Shown: positions 10,017 to 22,249 of the stretch, piece by piece
Numbering within the stretch: the first letter of the stretch is position 1
How the letters are laid out: every line of letters starts with the position of its first letter
DNA from: a virus
IMG/VR virus record: IMGVR_UViG_3300021599_000885
Length of the DNA: 64,000 nt
Direction: 5' to 3' (one strand)
Program-made: the position numbers and the translations under genes
The notes under the pieces: model-generated
What the model saw: the letters and a program-made list of their open reading frames with translations, nothing else
What the model was told of the DNA's origin: nothing
Database searches by the model: none

Positions 10017-10247
10017 CTACCAGTCAGGATATTCCCACAGTTCTGTTGGTGTTGGTCTTTTCTTATTTGATAAAACTCTCTTCTTAGTACATTCCTTACA
10101 TTCATAAGAATAGGCAGAAGGTAAAGCACCCCTGCCTTTTCTAGTTAGATAAAAGTCATCTATCAAATTTTTTATTTCTCCACAAATCCTACACTCCCTA
10201 TCAAAAAGAAGTATGTGTTCTAGATTTATTTGATCTTCTAAGTCCAT
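10017..10247 (-). CDS. Small CxxC...CxxC zinc-binding protein
   Basis: RECRICGEIK...YSYECKEC; start taken at MDLEDQ, abutting the g17 stop. Confidence 0.7.
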   Translation of the reverse strand: MDLEDQINLEHILLFDRECRICGEIKNLIDDFYLTRKGRGALPSAYSYECKECTKKRVLSNKKRPTPTELWEYPDW

Positions 10248-11899
10248 TAATAATATTCCCACATATAAGATCTATCACCATACTCATCGGTATGCCATCT
10301 ATCTCCATCACTATCAACAAAAGTGCTTTCATCCAAACCATCCAATATAAATCCAAATGGAGCCATATCTTGTTCTATTTGATTTTTTTGCTCTTCATAA
10401 ATTCTTTTACGAATATCATTATCGGTCATCTCTTTGAAGTATTCTTGTGCTACCAACCAAGAAAATATAACCAAGCACATCGCTAGGTCATCATTACATC
10501 CTTCCTCTGCCTCAAAGGAATTATGTCTTTGAGCAAATGTTGTAAGTTCCGATATAATATCGTAATCTACAGTCAATAACTTATCATCCTCCATAAGAGT
10601 TTTTAGGTTAGAGCAACCCAACTTCTTCACTGCTGCAGTCATTCTTACACCCATCTGCGATTTCTTACCAGAGAAACCATGCCCGATAACTTGTCCGGCA
10701 CGACCTCTCATTGCAGCCATAAGCATATTTTCATATTCTAAATCATAGTGTAAAATATTAGCAACTTGTTCCCCAATATCATTAACCTCGATAAGTAACC
10801 AAGCATTATTATATCCCTTAGCAACATCGATAATAACACTTGGAAATAACATTGGTTTTATTTCATTATTTCTATACTTCGCCACTACCTTATATGGAAA
10901 CTGTGTGATATCAAAAATAATAAATGCAGAGTAATCATTTCCAAGACCACGAGCAACGTCTACGGTGATTAAATAATTGTGCTCTTCCCGTGGTTTTTCA
11001 TAAACGTCTAATCCGGCATTCCTTTTTATTGGATTTTCATAAACAAGATTTCTAAGTTTTGATGGGTTGATGAGAGTGTTGACTGATCCTAAGAATTCAC
11101 ACTCAAACTCAACCTTGAATTGTTGTTCTGAGGTGTTAGCAATAGTTTGCTCTTTCCATGCATCATCTCTACCGGGAACTTCTGACCAGTGAACATCAGT
11201 GGGAACATATTCATTTTTATTTCTTTCCGCATCATGCCACATGCGGTAGAAATGGTTCATACCCCTAGGGGTAGAAACAATAATTACCTTTGTGCTCTGT
11301 CCAGAAGAAATAGTAGGATAAACAGAGGCAAAGAAGTCATCAGCAATGTGATTTGGGATGAACGCGAACTCGTCGAGAAAGATGACATTATAGGATCCGC
11401 CTCGGACAGCAGATGACGAAGTAGAGTTAGACGAAATTTTGGAGCCATTTTCTAATTCTAAAGATCCTTTATTCCATGATATAATACCCTGCTGCATCCA
11501 CTTCGGCAAGTTTTCATAAGCAAGTTGTAATCTTCCTAGAAGATCTCTAGCAGTAGATGCTTTGTTGGCTAGAATAGCTATATTAACATTGTCGTTGAAA
11601 ACAGCATAATGTAACAAATATGAAACACAAGTCGTAGATTTACCCGTCTGACGGGGCATTTTACAGATATTAAATCTATTTTTGTGGAAATTACTAATCA
11701 GTTTCTCTTGGAATGGGTACATCTCAAAAGGCACCAGACCATGATCAAGCGACACGATCTTGATATAATTTCTAGCAAAATAAACTGGATCTTCTTTACA
11801 CTTTAAGAACTCAATAATTCTATCTTCAGTCCATTCAATGGGAGTATTAGCTTTTTTGAGCAGAGGATTGCCCAAATAAACATCACTAGACATATTCAT
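10247..11899 (-). CDS. g17: Terminase large subunit gp17
   Basis: PRQTGKST Walker A, IFLDEFAF Walker B, VIIVSTPRG, nuclease DVARG and DDLAM motifs. Confidence 0.99.
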   Translation of the reverse strand: MNMSSDVYLGNPLLKKANTPIEWTEDRIIEFLKCKEDPVYFARNYIKIVSLDHGLVPFEMYPFQEKLISNFHKNRFNICKMPRQTGKSTTCVSYLLHYAVFNDNVNIAILANKASTARDLLGRLQLAYENLPKWMQQGIISWNKGSLELENGSKISSNSTSSSAVRGGSYNVIFLDEFAFIPNHIADDFFASVYPTISSGQSTKVIIVSTPRGMNHFYRMWHDAERNKNEYVPTDVHWSEVPGRDDAWKEQTIANTSEQQFKVEFECEFLGSVNTLINPSKLRNLVYENPIKRNAGLDVYEKPREEHNYLITVDVARGLGNDYSAFIIFDITQFPYKVVAKYRNNEIKPMLFPSVIIDVAKGYNNAWLLIEVNDIGEQVANILHYDLEYENMLMAAMRGRAGQVIGHGFSGKKSQMGVRMTAAVKKLGCSNLKTLMEDDKLLTVDYDIISELTTFAQRHNSFEAEEGCNDDLAMCLVIFSWLVAQEYFKEMTDNDIRKRIYEEQKNQIEQDMAPFGFILDGLDESTFVDSDGDRWHTDEYGDRSYMWEYY

Positions 11900-12371
11900 A
11901 CCCCCTTTCTGGACCCCAATGTTTCATTCTGTAAGATAATCCCTGTATCGTTATACCTACATCATCTGCTGCCTCTTGTTGAGAAATATATATTTTTCCA
12001 TTTATAGAAACTTTTTTGCTATTGGGGTGCTTCTCTCCACCCTCATACTTATGGCCAAAAGAGCGACCTTTCAGTGCCTCGCTTTTCTTTCTACAAGTTT
12101 CTTTACTATGCTTCCTACCAATATTTTTTTGAGTTGCCTTATTTAAATTTTCCATAAACCAAGCATCATTGTGCCACCCACACTTATGTATCTCTCTACT
12201 ACAAACATATAAATGCTCTGGTATATCTTTTCCACCTTCACATCTTGGTGGGAAATGATGAACATCCATACCTCTCATCTGTTCCCAAGTTAATCCCCAA
12301 TTTTTTCGAGCAATATTTCTTACTGTTTTAGGACTTAACCTTTCCCTTGGAACTTTAATAATAGCAGACAC
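11886..12371 (-). mobile_element. Free-standing HNH homing endonuclease with NUMOD3-like DNA-binding repeats
   Basis: DVHHFPPRCEGGKDIPEHL...H HNH-like core, GRKHSKETCRKKSEALKG (NUMOD3-like) and a C-terminal YISQQEAADDVGI helix-turn-helix; own late promoter at 12393-12400. Confidence 0.85.
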
Positions 12372-12395
12372 ATTTCAATCCCAATCTAAAAATAT

Positions 12396-12432
12396 TTATA
12401 CAAGATAGACTTCACTCATAACGAAACTCCTT
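12396..12432 (-). pseudogene. Stranded original 5' end of g17 (SD plus MSEVYLV*)
   Basis: AAGGAG-7 nt-ATG AGT GAA GTC TAT CTT GTA TAA; resembles the current gp17 start SSDVYLGNP. Confidence 0.75.
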
Positions 12433-12433
12433 T

Positions 12434-14017
12434 TTAATCTTCTACATAAATGAACGAAGCACTAGCAGCAGTAATATTAGATGTTGATGAAATTACTGCG
12501 GTTATAAAACTATTTGGTGGAACATGAAGTCCAATTTCAGATAAATCAACATCAATGGTTGAGTTATCTGATACATGAAAAGCAGCAATAGGAGGTATTG
12601 ATTGTGCTGCTAATGTAAATAATCCAGTGCTATCTTGAGTTGCATAAAGTGATGCATTAAAATCACTTTGAGTAGTCCATCTCAAATAATTTGTAAGAAC
12701 TGGGTTCCAATATATGCGAATAACTGCTGGGTCTCCTGTTGTATTTACTGATGCAGTAAGTCTTCTAGGAAGTAAATCTCTTGTATTAATCTTACCTTGA
12801 TAAACAAGTTTATTTTTAAGAGAAATGAGATGATATAAAGAACCAGGAGTGTTCATACTATCATTTCTGGTTGTAGTCACTGAATATGGAAGTTTTGTTC
12901 TTTCAACAATACCTTCAATCGCACCAAGGAAAGAAGAACCTCTACAAGTAACAACACCTACACCACCACCTAGATTTGCAGCAACATATCCAATCTTCAT
13001 TGATGGATTGTCTAGGTGTGGTAGTTGGTTTCTATTTGAATAATGTTCGTGATGGAAGAAAATCATATCCCCATTTAGAGGATTTTCAATCGCATATCTA
13101 ATCTCACCAGAACCTAACCAACGGAAGTTGATTTGATATACATTTAACTTAGATGGGTCTAGAGTAATACCAGAATATCCAGTTCCATCAAGTTTATCTA
13201 AATTAAAATCTTCTTGGAAAGTCCAGTTTTCTGTTTGTACTACCCCTGCCTGTCTTAATAATGCATTAAAAGATATTGTTGCGGTGCTTGTAATATCAAA
13301 AGTTCCAGTTTGAGGTCCAAGAGATGTTGCTAAAAATCTTAATCTTGATTGGTCATATTCAACCAAATACAAAGCATTAAAGAGTGCTTGTGCTCTTAAT
13401 CCTTGTGCGAGTTGAGAAAGATTTCCTGCAAGTGTTCCTGAATTTACTGTTACCGCAGTAAAAGAAGTTCCATTCAGAGTGACTGTTACATTTCCATTAT
13501 CAAGTGTGGTGAAGTCATAACCCTGAATTCTTGCTTTACCACCATTTGCACGAAGAACACCAAACTTCCCATTGGTGTGTGCATATCCAATTTGAATTGC
13601 TTGTTCTTGATTGAATAGTCCTGCTCTTTGTGTAAATCCTACTGGGTTATTTGAGAACGAACCAGTAAATCTGCAAACAACACCTTGTCCTGGACGGTAT
13701 CTAATAAAGTTCGTACTTCTGATTACACCATAAGAATTTGCAGAAGAACCAGCACCAACTATAAATGTAGAGTTTGCATGAGTAGCAATTCCTGTTGCAC
13801 TGAATGTATATGTCTCAAACTCTCTTGGGTCTAATCCATAGACAGCATCTGCCTGAATTTTTGGTGTAATTGGGACTGCAATATTCTCACCAAAAGCAGA
13901 TTTAGAACAAGCACCTTCATTTAGAATATTTCCATACTCATCAGCACGGAGATAAACTTCGTGAAGTGTTCTTTCTTGATTTAAGTAGTCTTGTGTAGAC
14001 TTATTCCACTGAGCCAT
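12434..14017 (-). CDS. Hypothetical beta-rich protein, probably virion-associated
   Basis: 527 aa, Thr/Ser/Gly-rich, within the late operon between g16 and g17. Confidence 0.6.
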   Translation of the reverse strand: MAQWNKSTQDYLNQERTLHEVYLRADEYGNILNEGACSKSAFGENIAVPITPKIQADAVYGLDPREFETYTFSATGIATHANSTFIVGAGSSANSYGVIRSTNFIRYRPGQGVVCRFTGSFSNNPVGFTQRAGLFNQEQAIQIGYAHTNGKFGVLRANGGKARIQGYDFTTLDNGNVTVTLNGTSFTAVTVNSGTLAGNLSQLAQGLRAQALFNALYLVEYDQSRLRFLATSLGPQTGTFDITSTATISFNALLRQAGVVQTENWTFQEDFNLDKLDGTGYSGITLDPSKLNVYQINFRWLGSGEIRYAIENPLNGDMIFFHHEHYSNRNQLPHLDNPSMKIGYVAANLGGGVGVVTCRGSSFLGAIEGIVERTKLPYSVTTTRNDSMNTPGSLYHLISLKNKLVYQGKINTRDLLPRRLTASVNTTGDPAVIRIYWNPVLTNYLRWTTQSDFNASLYATQDSTGLFTLAAQSIPPIAAFHVSDNSTIDVDLSEIGLHVPPNSFITAVISSTSNITAASASFIYVED

Positions 14018-14337
14018 TATTCACTCCACGATAATCTTTCTGGTTGATACCTCTGAGAACTCTTAATTTTTAAAGAACTTTGAGATTGTGATGGATAGAT
14101 ATTGTGAACAATCGCACCAGGATATTCTCCTTGAAGTTGTTCAGCGAGAGCGTTCTTATCCATCATAGAACCTTCAACCTCAAGACGATACATCTTTCCT
14201 TCCCAAACTACATCAGCAAAGAAAGACTCACTTGCGGTCTCTGGTTCTTGTGAACCACCTACATTTAAAGTTCCATTAAAATCACCATTGATGGTGATGC
14301 TTTCTTGTAAAAACTGTTGAAAACTTTTCATTAGCAT
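14017..14337 (-). CDS. Putative internal head protein with a capsid-targeting-like N-terminus
   Basis: MKSFQQFLQE resembles the T4 internal-protein capsid targeting sequence (IPIII MKTYQEFIAE). Confidence 0.6.
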   Translation of the reverse strand: MLMKSFQQFLQESITINGDFNGTLNVGGSQEPETASESFFADVVWEGKMYRLEVEGSMMDKNALAEQLQGEYPGAIVHNIYPSQSQSSLKIKSSQRYQPERLSWSE

Positions 14338-16034
14338 TTCCAGCGACGACGGGCTTTACAAATTGCTTTATCTGGGTCTTTTGAGCAATCAATGTTATGC
14401 ATGTCTTGCTGACCCTTAGAGCGAGCGCAGAAGGACTTTCTACGCTTTGATCTTCCTGGTCCAGGATCTTTCTCAGTTACGGCAGTCTTTAGTTTAGAAC
14501 CAGGATTCTCACGACGATAAGCATTAACTGCTTTCTGACTCATACCATCAGTTTTGTCTGACTTATTTACTTTCTGCCAATCTTCTTCCAGTTCTTCTCT
14601 CCAGTTAGAGTATCCTTCTTTTACACAGTTGGGAACCATTTTCCCACCCTTCTTTTTCATACCAACTTGCTTGTAACCATCCCAGCAAGGATCTTCTTTT
14701 GCTTCGGCAAAAGCATCTGTAGAAACACCATCAGCATAAGATGATTGACTTGGAGTTGCTCTCTTAAATCTAGGTTTTCTGCTTAGATTAGAGGGGAGTT
14801 GATTGTCTCCTACTTTTTTACCTAATGGATATTTTGGATCATATGCACTTTGCTCACTAACAAGAGGTTCTGGTTTAATCAGATCAATTGTTTCAATTTC
14901 AAGTGCCTTGAAGTCATCTCTCCAGTTGGAAAACTCATATCCCTCTTTTTTAGTTCCCCAGTTATCAGCACCAACTTTACGGCACTTAACTAATGCACCA
15001 GATGCATATGCACTTGGCCAAACGTCATATCTTGCCTTTACTTTCTTATAGCAAGCATCTTTTTTCTCATCAATCAATTGACCCTTAACTTCTGTCTCTT
15101 GTCTGAGTAACTTTAATGCTTCACGAGTAGCATCGTTGTGTCGTTGCATACCATATGAAGCATGACCAATACCAGTTCCAGGCTGAATTTTTTCACCTTT
15201 CTTAGCAGCTTCTACACCAGATTTCGAAGCCTGTTGTGCTCTACGAATTGCAGCAAGTCCAAGAGCACCAGCACCAAGAGCAAGACCACCAGCAACTAAA
15301 GGAGCAAGTTCATCAAGTTGCTCACCTTTTGGTTCAAAGTGTTGTGCTAGTTTTAGTTTACTATCACTAGGAAGTTCTAAAACATCTTCAGGTCTACCAC
15401 CAACTCCACCAGCAAGTTTTTTATTATCTCTAAACATTCTCCTAAGTGCATCAGCTCCACTTTCTCCGGGAAGAAGTTTAACTTGTTCTCTCACTATCTT
15501 TGCTTTACCCTTTCTATTTGGGTTTGGATCTTCTTTACGCTTCTTCTTTGCTCTCTTCTCTCTTTCATCCTTACTCATTGCTGCACGATCATCAGCATCG
15601 CGGCAGAATGGTTTGGTTTTTTGTCCTGGTTGTTTGGCACAAGGTTTTCCATCATACTTACCACCTGCCTGAACCCATCCACCACCAGAAAACCAGTCAC
15701 GGAGTGAGTAGTCTTTATCTTTAGCGGACTTGCCATCACGCTTACCTTCTTCCATATAAGAAGCAGCAGCATCTGTGTTGTGCTCCGTATCAGTCAACTT
15801 TGCTTGAACCCAAGCAGGAAGGTTATCTGCGTCAGTTTTCTTTGCAAGAACTCTTGCTACTTTTTGTAGATTATCAATAGACTTTTTGACCTGAGTCTTA
15901 GCCATTGAGACTTCATGGTCTTTTTCTTTTGCTTCATTCATTTTCTTTTTACGTCCCTGACAATGAGCACGCTGAGAAAACCCTTTTGGGTTGTCGCAAT
16001 CAATCGATTTTTTATATTTCTCAGACCAACCCAT
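14331..16034 (-). CDS. Modular basic protein, possibly a gp21-processed polyprotein
   Basis: 567 aa of Lys/Arg-rich, often Cys-paired modules separated by hydrophobic-x-E sites. Confidence 0.75.
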   Translation of the reverse strand: MGWSEKYKKSIDCDNPKGFSQRAHCQGRKKKMNEAKEKDHEVSMAKTQVKKSIDNLQKVARVLAKKTDADNLPAWVQAKLTDTEHNTDAAASYMEEGKRDGKSAKDKDYSLRDWFSGGGWVQAGGKYDGKPCAKQPGQKTKPFCRDADDRAAMSKDEREKRAKKKRKEDPNPNRKGKAKIVREQVKLLPGESGADALRRMFRDNKKLAGGVGGRPEDVLELPSDSKLKLAQHFEPKGEQLDELAPLVAGGLALGAGALGLAAIRRAQQASKSGVEAAKKGEKIQPGTGIGHASYGMQRHNDATREALKLLRQETEVKGQLIDEKKDACYKKVKARYDVWPSAYASGALVKCRKVGADNWGTKKEGYEFSNWRDDFKALEIETIDLIKPEPLVSEQSAYDPKYPLGKKVGDNQLPSNLSRKPRFKRATPSQSSYADGVSTDAFAEAKEDPCWDGYKQVGMKKKGGKMVPNCVKEGYSNWREELEEDWQKVNKSDKTDGMSQKAVNAYRRENPGSKLKTAVTEKDPGPGRSKRRKSFCARSKGQQDMHNIDCSKDPDKAICKARRRWKC

Positions 16035-18657: not shown

Positions 18658-19514
18658 TATCCAATAAAATCGAGAGGTGGTAGTTCATAATCCATAGACA
18701 TACGAGATTGAATCTCTGCAAGTTCTCTTTCAGCATCATCATATAATTGTCTACCATTAAGTTCAATTCCACCAGGAAGTTTTACACCATTGAACTTGAT
18801 TAAGTTTTGACCCCACTGGCGTTTAATAAGAGCAGTTAGGTATCTCTTTAAGAAACTATCATTATAAACACCAGTATATGAATCTGGATCTAATATTCTA
18901 TGGCAGTCAATAATAATATAGTCATTTTCACTCATACTCTTCCAATCAATATCCAGATACAATCTATCTTGTCTCTTATTGTATCTAATTTGTTTATCTG
19001 GAGTTAAAAGGAAGTCAATATCCTCCAAATAAGTTTTCGTCATTGCATATTGCAATAGTTCAACCGAATTGAAGTAGTAGAGATCATTCAAAAACAGTTG
19101 ATATTTGATACTAAACATTCCACCAGAAATAGAACTAGTATCAAACTTAAAGATTTTTTCAATTCCAATAACAGAATCTGGAACCTGAATGAAATTGGAA
19201 GTTTCGTAGTAATTTGAAGTGGTTGTCCCATAACCACTGATAGTCGTTGAAGTAGCACTTGTAGTTACGATACCTGCGGTATTTGTGCTTCCAGATTCGT
19301 TTGATGCCCTTCCTCTATCTAAGTCTGCTTGAGTGAATCTATACTTCAGATACATTCTCTCAACACCATCAAAATGACGCTCTTGAAAATACTGAAGAGC
19401 ATCATCTACCAGGTCGTCAATTTGATCATCATCAACGTTGATCTCCAAAACTGGAGCGCCCAAACGTCTCAAACAATAATCGATAAGTCCTTGGCGTGTT
19501 GATGGTTTTGCCAT
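18657..19514 (-). CDS. g13: Neck protein gp13
   Basis: YCLRRLGAPVLEINV, QWGQNLIKFNGVKLPGGIELNG. Confidence 0.96.
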   Translation of the reverse strand: MAKPSTRQGLIDYCLRRLGAPVLEINVDDDQIDDLVDDALQYFQERHFDGVERMYLKYRFTQADLDRGRASNESGSTNTAGIVTTSATSTTISGYGTTTSNYYETSNFIQVPDSVIGIEKIFKFDTSSISGGMFSIKYQLFLNDLYYFNSVELLQYAMTKTYLEDIDFLLTPDKQIRYNKRQDRLYLDIDWKSMSENDYIIIDCHRILDPDSYTGVYNDSFLKRYLTALIKRQWGQNLIKFNGVKLPGGIELNGRQLYDDAERELAEIQSRMSMDYELPPLDFIG

Positions 19515-19735
19515 TAGAATTCCTCAGCAGATAAATTATCCGTCTTTTGTGTGGATTTTTTCTTCGTTTGCAATTTACTCAATTCTTCCTCTTGCTCATT
19601 CACTTTCTTTTTGAGAGCATCAATGGTTTGATTAGCAACCATAATCTTTGCTTCTAAAGCAACAGTTTGTGAAAATAAATCTGATGCTTTTTGCTGATAT
19701 ACTAAAATCATGCTTCTGTAATCAGTTTCATTCAT
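19514..19735 (-). CDS. Hypothetical coiled-coil protein
   Basis: 73-aa ORF whose stop overlaps the g13 start. Confidence 0.7.
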   Translation of the reverse strand: MNETDYRSMILVYQQKASDLFSQTVALEAKIMVANQTIDALKKKVNEQEEELSKLQTKKKSTQKTDNLSAEEF

Positions 19736-19744
19736 AATTGATAC

Positions 19745-19769
19745 AAAAAAAGGTGGGACTTGCCCACCT
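19745..19769 (-). terminator. Rho-independent terminator after the fibre gene
   Basis: AGGTGGG-CAAGT-CCCACCT-TTTTTT. Confidence 0.8.
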
Positions 19770-19792
19770 ATATTTATAATCGCTAGTTAATT

Positions 19793-22249
19793 TTAGAATG
19801 ATCCACCATCTATGGTGATATTTTCCAGACTTCTTGTAGATCCACTACAGGAGATAACCTGCGACTGACCAGCACAATCATTAACCCACAGAGAGCCAAT
19901 TTCAAAATCTGCATATGTGATACTACCCATAACACTGGTAGTTTCAGTAACTTGTGAAGCAACTACGATTCTTCCAGCACTGTCGTCCCAGAACATAGCA
20001 GCGGTCTTAGCGGAACCGCTGTAGTAATGTAGAACAATACCAACGTCAATGTTTGCGTCGGAAGAAGGAGCAACAAGTGAACCACCGCTGTTGACTAGAC
20101 CAACCTCAATCAGAGAATCTTCAACTTTCAGAGTCTCTGTATTGATGATGGACTGAGTTCCAAGAACGGTGAAGTTTCCGTTAACAGTCAGATCATCAGC
20201 AACCGTAACTGTTCCACCAGTTGAATCGAGTGTTAGACCACCAGATGAGGTAGAAACTGTGTTACCATCAATGGTTACGTTATCAACAGCAGCGGCACCC
20301 GTTACGGTAAGTGTAGTACCATTGAAGGTTAAGTTTCCACTATCCTCAATAGCGCCTGAAGTACCAGCAAGAACAACACGACCTGAAGTTAGATCTGATA
20401 CTGTTGCAGACGAAAGAACTGTTTCAGCACCAGAAACATTTAGACCGCCATTAAAGTCAACAGCACCAGTTACTGTAAGACCAGCACCAACAACAGCATC
20501 TTTTGTAACAGCGATGGAATCTGTGACTGATAAATCGCCAGTTACTGTGAGAGTTGAACCATCAAAGGTTAGGTTTCCACTATCCTGGAGAGCACCTGAA
20601 GTACCAGCAAGGACAACACGACCAGAAGTGAGGTCTGATACTGTTGCTGAGGATAATACAGTTTCTCCACCTGAAATATTAGCACCACCATTACCATCAA
20701 TAGCGCCAGTTACTGTAAGACCAGCACCGATAACAACATCAGTTGCGGAAAGATTTGCGATAGTTGAAACGCCTGTGGAATTTATATTTCCACTTACGTT
20801 ACCTGTTAAGTCTCCCTGTACTCCACCGCTTGCATAGAAATTAGTAGCAGATACCGAGTTATTACTTGCAGTTACACCACTACCAACAGCAAGGACAACT
20901 CCATTTGCCATTGATGTGGTTCCAATAGCAAGAGCATAGTTAAATGCAAATGCATCAGTTTCAAATCCAAGAGTCCCACTCTTGAACCACATTAACTGTT
21001 TATAAGTATCTGGAAGTGTGTTAATACCAGATGCAGCAAATGATACTAATGGAGATCCCTCAGTAGATGCAATTGCCACTCCAGCATGATTAGCGGTATC
21101 CTCATTAGGAGTAATGGAAGTTGTATATCCAAGAATAATATCTTTGTTTTCAATAAAAACATCTTGCCCTCTAAGAGCAACAAAGGTTCCTCCAATTGTT
21201 ACATTTCCACTAACATTAATATCGCCACCAACGTTTAGATTCCTCTGTATTCCTACACCACCATCAATAATTACAGCACCATTATCATAAGATGTCGATT
21301 CGGTAGTTCCCGTGAATGAAACAATTCCAGAAAGTACTGAGTTTCCATGTGATGCAAAACTTTCATCAACTTCAAATATTCCATTTACGAAAAGATCATC
21401 TAAAATATGTAAATTATAAATTGTAGAGAATCCAGCAACATTAATTCCATTATTACCAACTACTATTCCATTAAAAGTGGAAAAACCAGTTACATTTAAG
21501 TTTTCGCTAAGATTTAAACTTCTTGCGTAAATATCTGCCCATCTATTAGATAATGATCCCAGATCATAATATACATCTGTGGTTGGGATAAGATCGGATG
21601 CAAATTCTCCGCCAACAATAACATCATCAGATCCAGAATCACCAAGATTAATTGTTCCGCCACGGAATGTTACTACACCGACAAACTCCGAATATCCACC
21701 AACATGTAGGTTTTGCTTAACCGTTAGGTTTTTAGCAATACCCATACCTCCGTCAAGTTGAACGGAACCAGTATTTTCGTCACCTAAAGTATTATCCGTA
21801 GTGTTGGTTACAGTTGTAATACCAGAGATATCAGTGGATGCTTCAATATTCAGATGACCCTGAATCGTGGTAATACCAGTCAGAGCTGAGTTAGCAGAAC
21901 CAGCACCCCAAGTTAGATTTCCATTTCCATCATTAGTGAGAACGGAACTTACAGCACCTTGAGTTCCTGGGAAAGTATATGTTACAATACCAGCAAGAGA
22001 TGCTGGTGCCGCAAGACTAATATAGTCCGAACCATTTGAACTACCTTCAACAAGGTTAACTGCAGAACCAGTACTTTCAGTTTCTACTCTCCAAAATCTG
22101 GATGAACCTACAAATTTATTAGTTGCTGTTTCTGAAGTTAAACCAACATATAGATCGTATCTATCTGTTGTAAACCCGGGTTCACCTGCCCTCAATCCTG
22201 GGAGATTATTAAATAGACCCCTCTTAAACTGTAATACAGGAGCAGCCAT
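19793..22249 (-). CDS. Fibre / whisker-like virion protein
   Basis: N-terminal LQFKRG...LRAGEPGFTTD...LYVG fibre-type motif, beta-repeat body and C-terminal IDGGSF. Confidence 0.8.
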   Translation of the reverse strand: MAAPVLQFKRGLFNNLPGLRAGEPGFTTDRYDLYVGLTSETATNKFVGSSRFWRVETESTGSAVNLVEGSSNGSDYISLAAPASLAGIVTYTFPGTQGAVSSVLTNDGNGNLTWGAGSANSALTGITTIQGHLNIEASTDISGITTVTNTTDNTLGDENTGSVQLDGGMGIAKNLTVKQNLHVGGYSEFVGVVTFRGGTINLGDSGSDDVIVGGEFASDLIPTTDVYYDLGSLSNRWADIYARSLNLSENLNVTGFSTFNGIVVGNNGINVAGFSTIYNLHILDDLFVNGIFEVDESFASHGNSVLSGIVSFTGTTESTSYDNGAVIIDGGVGIQRNLNVGGDINVSGNVTIGGTFVALRGQDVFIENKDIILGYTTSITPNEDTANHAGVAIASTEGSPLVSFAASGINTLPDTYKQLMWFKSGTLGFETDAFAFNYALAIGTTSMANGVVLAVGSGVTASNNSVSATNFYASGGVQGDLTGNVSGNINSTGVSTIANLSATDVVIGAGLTVTGAIDGNGGANISGGETVLSSATVSDLTSGRVVLAGTSGALQDSGNLTFDGSTLTVTGDLSVTDSIAVTKDAVVGAGLTVTGAVDFNGGLNVSGAETVLSSATVSDLTSGRVVLAGTSGAIEDSGNLTFNGTTLTVTGAAAVDNVTIDGNTVSTSSGGLTLDSTGGTVTVADDLTVNGNFTVLGTQSIINTETLKVEDSLIEVGLVNSGGSLVAPSSDANIDVGIVLHYYSGSAKTAAMFWDDSAGRIVVASQVTETTSVMGSITYADFEIGSLWVNDCAGQSQVISCSGSTRSLENITIDGGSF
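20280..20740. repeat. ~240-bp (80-aa) tandem duplication in the fibre gene
   Basis: ETVLSSATVSDLTSGRVVLAGTSGA..DSGNLTF.G.TLTVTG occurs twice; DNA near-identical at ~20324-20407 and ~20564-20647. Boundaries approximate. Confidence 0.9.

Follow-up and report, generated by a model that had tools for sequence, protein, structure and literature searches.

An intronless homing endonuclease cassette with its own replacement gene start, very probably settled in the first codons of a cyanophage large terminase gene

The closest parallel to the locus considered here is the MobA element of phage T4. The locus itself lies in a 64,000-nucleotide (nt) stretch of the virus record IMGVR_UViG_3300021599_000885 (hereafter the window), which belongs to a 98-kb IMG/VR contig from a T4-like cyanophage. 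In this stretch, a small endonuclease gene immediately precedes the large terminase gene g17 and overlaps it, while a short remnant of a g17 start, referred to as the stub, lies just 5′ of the endonuclease gene. All locus features and genes of this part of the window are on the minus strand, and their coordinates are collected in the table. The arrangement is very probably a free-standing, intronless homing endonuclease cassette that settled in the 5′ coding end of an essential gene.

The MobA/gene 60 cassette was described by Bonocora et al. 2011 and is summarized in bioRxiv 10.1101/2022.08.31.505936. MobA and the g17 cassette have in common (i) a free-standing endonuclease (HNH-type in MobA, HNH-like by its motif in the cassette) at one conserved site of an essential open reading frame (ORF), (ii) an element-encoded replacement of the target sequence, designated HomR in the MobA system, (iii) sharp boundaries together with repeated entry into different phage clades, and (iv) decay of the endonuclease while the replacement part stays. 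Peculiar to MobA are the splitting of the topoisomerase gene into two polypeptides with new C- and N-terminal extensions, a target deletion of 55-75 nt, and a 50-nt ribosomal bypass that is needed to block self-nicking. The g17 cassette, in contrast, is inserted between codons 6 and 7, has deleted nothing (the stub remains), and involves no bypass. Because of this position, one full-length protein is made.

Intronless homing is also represented in T4 by the seg/mob endonucleases, including SegF, SegG, and MobE (reviewed in PMC2988022). Like the g17 cassette, these are free-standing, carry I-TevI-like modular DNA-binding regions, are under late-promoter control (putative in the cassette), have start codons that are weak or unusual (a predicted GUG in mobA), co-convert flanking DNA, and can be retained because host-gene expression signals lie inside the endonuclease gene (PMC2988022). 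They reside between genes and often cleave hundreds of bases away (PMC2988022), whereas the g17 cassette sits inside coding sequence and brings a second, recoded copy of the gene start. Aeh1 mobE in nrdA and the "fractured genes" with split inteins likewise place an intronless endonuclease within a conserved phage ORF, but yield two polypeptides that are reassembled or joined, one gp17-like locus included (PMC2988022; PMC2677866); the g17 cassette requires neither protein splitting nor protein splicing. I-TevI shares with the g17 endonuclease the fold of its DNA-binding domain and a late promoter (putative in the cassette) directly 5′ of the ORF, but has a GIY-YIG nuclease domain and resides inside a self-splicing intron. 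In I-TevI, a homing-site-like operator overlaps the promoter (PMC2988022), while in the g17 cassette the stub, presumably half of a homing site, abuts it; autorepression at the stub is speculative. A hairpin masking the endonuclease ribosome-binding site in read-through transcripts, as in I-TevI, was considered and rejected on the basis of the 101-nt leader, whose folding is not superior to that of shuffled sequences (z-score +1.62). The open-access literature text searched contained no report of an endonuclease at the start of cyanophage g17.

The nature of the stub is disclosed by relatives in which g17 is uninterrupted. The closest cultured one, Synechococcus phage S-T4, is ~77% identical in the gene upstream and lacks the insert. 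In S-T4, an identical run of 24 nt (stop codon, AAAAAGGAG, spacer, and ATGAGTGA) leads directly into g17, giving MSDQIYLGNPNLK, while in the window AAGGAG and the codons ATG AGT GAA GTC TAT CTT are broken by TATAAATA. A pattern search with the stub sequence followed by GGNAA retrieved g17 starts from at least 120 viral contigs, and every match listed lies at g17. These uninterrupted alleles read MSEVYLGNP(N/L)LKKANT behind many differing upstream sequences, and the first 19 nt of the stub are identical to their starts. The first-pass annotation of this DNA had described a broken gene start behind a strong Shine-Dalgarno sequence and had called for comparison with endonuclease-free loci; both S-T4 and the contigs place MSEVYLG at the beginning of g17 exactly here. 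The stub is evidently the former g17 start and not a chance resemblance. The gene just 5′ of g17 differs strongly among related phages, and the g17 start is among the most conserved DNA stretches of these phages while the upstream gene is variable. The endonuclease occurs in none of ~110 g17 starts sampled with a pattern blind to the first codons.

Carriers of the endonuclease comprise 33 IMG/VR loci and further contigs from an exact-protein look-up, ~35 in total, and in every one the gene lies directly 5′ of g17, with which it overlaps. A stub fused to TATAAATA at an identical junction is seen in 29 of the 33 tabulated carriers, the window included, and the gene ends that precede stub-bearing cassettes are of at least 10 kinds. 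The stub variants (MSEVYLV*, MSEFYLI*, MSDNIY(L/F)I*, MSDNVYLL*, MSDNAYLV*, and MSEV*) resemble natural g17 starts of endonuclease-free contigs.

Pairwise identities change abruptly at both ends of the insert. Loci L029 and L031 are ~40% identical upstream; identity rises to 93-100% at the stub ATG, stays in this range across the endonuclease and as far as nt ~50 of g17, and then falls to ~75%. Other contigs exhibit the same step. Most loci match the window at 98-100% over the 48 nt that precede the endonuclease, at 85-98% in the endonuclease, and at 90-96% in nt 1-50 of g17, but at just 68-88% in nt 51-100. Endonuclease DNA is more alike than the adjoining g17 body in 208 of 253 pairs (r = 0.34), with 98%-identical endonuclease genes residing in backbones that combine 76%-identical g17 with unrelated upstream DNA. 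On the endonuclease tree (midpoint root), near-identical genes occur in two or three upstream contexts, stub type tracks endonuclease clade, and L004 and L005, which have no stub, branch outside all others. Alignment of these copies delineates a mobile unit of ~590 nt. It opens with the stub, which copies 19-22 nt of the native g17 start, continues with the late-promoter motif and the endonuclease gene, and closes with a replacement 5′ end for g17. The ~35 natural copies fix its limits within a few bases, and the cassette evidently moves between phages with co-conversion of flanking DNA.

The intact g17 of the window is one ORF of 548 amino acids (aa) containing both terminase domains, while the stub codes for only seven residues. 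The g17 ATG at 11893 (MSSDVYLGNPLLK) is located 7 nt 3′ of GGGGG (11905-11901) and overlaps the endonuclease stop codon. The first-pass annotation had proposed that gp17 restarts here with recoded codons overlapping that stop, and this restart, together with a ribosome-binding site of its own, is retained in every copy, decayed ones included. The placement of the start has to be corrected, however: of two candidate ATGs, the first (11899) was rejected because many relatives have the second ATG only.

The recoded codons 1-17 of g17 travel with the endonuclease. Relative to the stub, Ser2 changes from AGT to TCT, which also supplies the endonuclease stop codon, Gly changes from GGT to GGC, and an extra codon is often present. 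Leu6 is TTG in 86% of endonuclease-adjacent alleles, compared with CTT in 74-85% of endonuclease-free alleles. These changes may block self-cleavage, and the codon bias is the one hint that the replacement start may be cleavage-resistant, as the first-pass annotation proposed. The longest perfect repeat between the stub and the new start is 5-6 nt, so that deletion of the insert should be hindered. Two g17 alleles without the endonuclease, L231 and L170, begin ATGTCTGA(A/G)GT(C/A)TATTTGGG and in this resemble the recoded starts seen in the cassette-bearing L029-L033. Such alleles could be resistant by nature, could have supplied the replacement start, or could have arisen by clean loss of the endonuclease.

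Several cassettes are in decay. L035 is frameshifted, L034 is damaged at the C-terminus, and L036, L038, and L039 retain the DNA-binding half or the last ~39 codons only, yet all preserve the 3′ end. A homing element is expected to pass through invasion and decay, and the series fits such a cycle, with one added constraint: the 3′ end of the endonuclease gene presumably cannot be lost because the g17 ribosome-binding site and ATG sit inside it.

The C-terminal half of the endonuclease consists of a NUMOD3 motif followed by an I-TevI-type helix-turn-helix. Pfam PF20987 matches the window protein with an E-value of 1.2e-6 and is found in 27 of 28 family members, with NUMOD3 detected in 16 of the 28 in the Pfam scan. 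The protein also matches PDB 1i3j (E 0.0025), and VIA-align superimposes 46 residues on 1t2t with a Z of 7.0 and a root-mean-square deviation of 1.8 Å. A modular DNA-binding domain of I-TevI type is thereby confirmed. In the N-terminal half, the invariant residues are H38 H39 ... P51 E52 H53 L54 ... C57 S58 ... H62 ... H67, and the structure model (mean predicted local distance difference test score 71.9) places strands at 35-40 and 53-58 and a helix at 59-66. Set against the PF01844 consensus, this reads as an HNH motif in which the conserved Asn position appears to be His, and it suggests a His-Me/HNH-like nuclease at the level of the motif. The first-pass label "HNH" thus reflects a motif; what Pfam and the fold searches confirm is the C-terminal I-TevI-type DNA-binding domain.

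The family has 35 database homologues with 58-93% identity. A tblastn search of 50,697 phage records, cultured cyanophages included, found no family member; its best matches are the DNA-binding regions of Seg-like genes in enterobacterial T4-like phages (33-40% identity). The search revealed no relation to MobA in sequence, the Seg-like regions being the closest phage-database matches, and the same genome contains no paralogue at E ≤ 0.01. Differences per codon position within the family amount to 0.10/0.07/0.31, and R156, G157, and Y158 vary little or not at all. Of 27 full-length copies, 25 have an intact ORF under purifying selection, and this selection acts at the level of the protein.

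TATAAATA is a putative late promoter of the endonuclease gene. The heptamer TATAAAT was used by Sullivan et al. to locate cyanomyovirus late promoters (PMC3037559). In most carrier contigs the cassette opens with TATAAATA or a close variant; in the window, the motif overlaps the end of the stub and contributes the stop codon of the stub. The window contains seven exact copies compared with ~4 expected by chance; all seven share the orientation of the genes, none falls within an ORF of at least 80 aa, and four are 26-41 nt before an ORF start. A late-promoter motif carried by the element, as read in the first-pass annotation, agrees with both this retention and the co-oriented, intergenic placement.

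A plausible course of invasion can be outlined from these features. The enzyme would cut an endonuclease-free g17 near its conserved TATCTT|GGYAATCC start, and the break would be mended from a co-infecting, cassette-bearing phage. On the right, homology would be available in any g17 body; on the left, only the last 19-22 nt, equivalent to the stub, would be common with the donor whatever the upstream gene. Copying of the donor followed by annealing at the stub would recreate the observed junction, and the recoded start would keep g17 translatable while lowering both self-cleavage and repeat-mediated loss of the insert. The stub would thus serve as the left homology arm of the cassette. A bolder proposal, which we hold tentatively and at slightly less than even chances, regards the stub as a working part: a portable "mini-exon" that gives left homology and perhaps an operator beside the late promoter, and that together with the element-borne start would constitute a third general way into coding sequence besides introns and inteins.

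An intron, whether group I or other, would make the stub exon 1 and generate native MSEVYLGNPLLK by a CTT-GGC splice. The join from the stub to GGC is indeed in frame and restores the native g17 start, and the terminase gene of ICP1 shows that a small N-terminal exon can stand beside a homing endonuclease gene and that short first exons are overlooked (PMC10055350). However, the sequence outside the ORF amounts to only ~30 nt from the junction to the endonuclease start and 13 nt from its stop to GGC (43 nt in all), flanks as short as first estimated and with no sign of a ribozyme core. Rfam returns no match at E ≤ 1 on either strand, and the fold of the insert is weak (z-score -1.69). Third codon positions vary strongly and evenly over the ORF, with no synonymously constrained stretch, which makes an embedded conserved RNA unlikely. 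With stub-less cassettes also in existence, and with every copy giving g17 a conserved ribosome-binding site, an ATG, and a complete N-terminus of its own, splicing is an exceedingly improbable explanation.

The endonuclease might instead be a domesticated, HK97-like HNH packaging accessory whose position is functional and not selfish, since HNH genes beside terminase genes can aid cos cleavage (PMC10055350). Such a role accords poorly with the absence of the gene from S-T4, all cultured cyanophage records, and the ~110 sampled g17 loci, with frameshifted or truncated copies in otherwise intact loci, with endonuclease divergence that is discordant with g17, and with a DNA-binding module of I-TevI type. 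T4-like phages, moreover, package by headful, and this account is highly unlikely. The insert could also be the scar of one ancient insertion, now inherited only vertically, with the stub as neutral debris and a window cassette that no longer homes. Decayed copies exist, and the stub-bearing copies form one group on the midpoint-rooted endonuclease tree, which fits a single stub origin. A purely vertical history is nonetheless improbable given the 98%-identical endonucleases in 76%-identical g17 backbones with unrelated upstream DNA, the near-identical cassettes in two or three contexts, the 25 of 27 full-length copies with an intact ORF under purifying selection, and stubs that keep natural g17 allele sequence with no drift.

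The preferred explanation, an intronless homing endonuclease that invaded the first codons of g17, was already advanced in the first-pass annotation, and the sporadic presence, fixed site, and lack of any intron sign largely bear it out. The insertion, its boundaries, the unrelated backbones, the purifying selection, and the decay series are each documented by sequence comparison. Certain observations count against it. The ~35 carrier copies are metagenomic assemblies from many samples and represent related sequences, so their counts are not independent events. A left arm of 19 nt is short for homologous repair. About 14% of endonuclease-adjacent alleles retain TATCTTGG, and immunity therefore cannot depend on the change from CTT to TTG alone; the endonuclease-adjacent MSNNDIYLG group, which retains TATCTTGG, led to the rejection of TATCTT-to-TATTTG recoding as the only source of immunity. 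Pfam HNH PF01844 matches one of 28 family members, at E 0.21, leaving the nuclease domain otherwise unrecognised, and Foldseek and VIA-align recover the C-terminal domain only, with no HNH fold above background. The designation "HNH-like" is used because neither Pfam nor fold searches confirm HNH.

Table. Features of the endonuclease cassette and of the adjoining genes in the window
Feature	Coordinates	Strand	Remarks
Virion structural protein gene, 527 aa	14017-12434	-	stop codon 12436-12434; 5′ neighbour of the stub
AAGGAG, original g17 ribosome-binding site, now serving the stub only	12427..12432	-	sequence and spacing as before intact g17 in S-T4
Stub ORF, ATG AGT GAA GTC TAT CTT GTA TAA = MSEVYLV*	12396..12419	-	six pre-insertion g17 codons plus GTA TAA from the junction
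TATAAATA, T4-type late-promoter motif at the cassette head	12393..12400	-	21 nt 5′ of the endonuclease start
Free-standing homing endonuclease gene (very probable), 161 aa, GTG start	11886..12371	-	TAG stop 11888-11886
Replacement g17 ribosome-binding site AAAGGGGG	11901..11908	-	within endonuclease codons E-R-G
Replacement g17 start and recoded first ~50 nt MSSDVYLGNPLLKKANT	11844..11893	-	co-travels with the cassette
g17 large terminase gene, intact, 548 aa	10247..11893	-	Pfam Terminase_6N 1.4e-21, Terminase_6C 2.3e-10

Other endonuclease-type and mobile sequences occur around g17 and elsewhere in the genome. At the 3′ end of g17, a 76-aa ORF (window 10017-10247, minus strand; 81 aa from GTG 10262) has an ATG that shares 1 nt with the g17 stop. 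Its product is similar to phrog_4723 "endonuclease VII" (1.3e-36), and S-T4 has a gene at the same position. Degenerate F-CphI-like endonuclease genes have been reported at the gp17 3′ end (Sullivan et al. 2010; PMC3037559), and the 76-aa ORF fits this type. With the cassette 5′ and this ORF 3′, endonuclease-type genes flank g17 on both sides. In L004 (2979-5489), the g17 with a 5′ endonuclease is also split by a LAGLIDADG-type intein (PF14528; product >1003 aa), so two different selfish elements occupy one gene.

A further arrangement is found outside the window in the same genome (L271 1013-2792; G000:C1 about 19512-21291). The clamp loader protein gp44 ends ...MVECEFK*, and ~300 nt downstream a 173-aa HNH ORF ends ...QVECEFK*. 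This ORF encodes a classical HNH protein without sequence relation to the g17 endonuclease, and the cassette looks like a mirror image at a gene 3′ end, with a duplicated gene end. Together with MobA HomR, it suggests that the strategy, replacement of the gene start in the case of g17, is wider.

Between the small and the large terminase gene, upstream of the variable virion protein gene, lie two further genes. The one at window 14331-16034 (minus strand) encodes a 567-aa Lys/Cys-rich protein of DUF6321 type (phrog_727), and the one at 14017-14337 (minus strand), which precedes the virion protein gene, encodes a 106-aa protein (phrog_1742).

For genome annotation, the practical consequence of such a cassette is that gene callers will leave a spurious 7-codon ORF or choose the wrong ATG. 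The gene g17 is a standard marker of cyanomyovirus diversity, and its first ~50 nt can therefore differ in history from the remaining gene. The prevailing view holds that homing endonucleases enter coding sequences only if they are hidden by an intron, an intein, or a split-gene arrangement. Insertion near the start codon lets the element bring a spare start, and the essential protein stays full-length, unspliced, and unsplit. The ~35 copies provide a small, testable system for minimal homing arm length, immunity by recoding, and self-made resistance to deletion, in which a selfish gene is hard to delete through its hold on the ribosome-binding site of the host gene.

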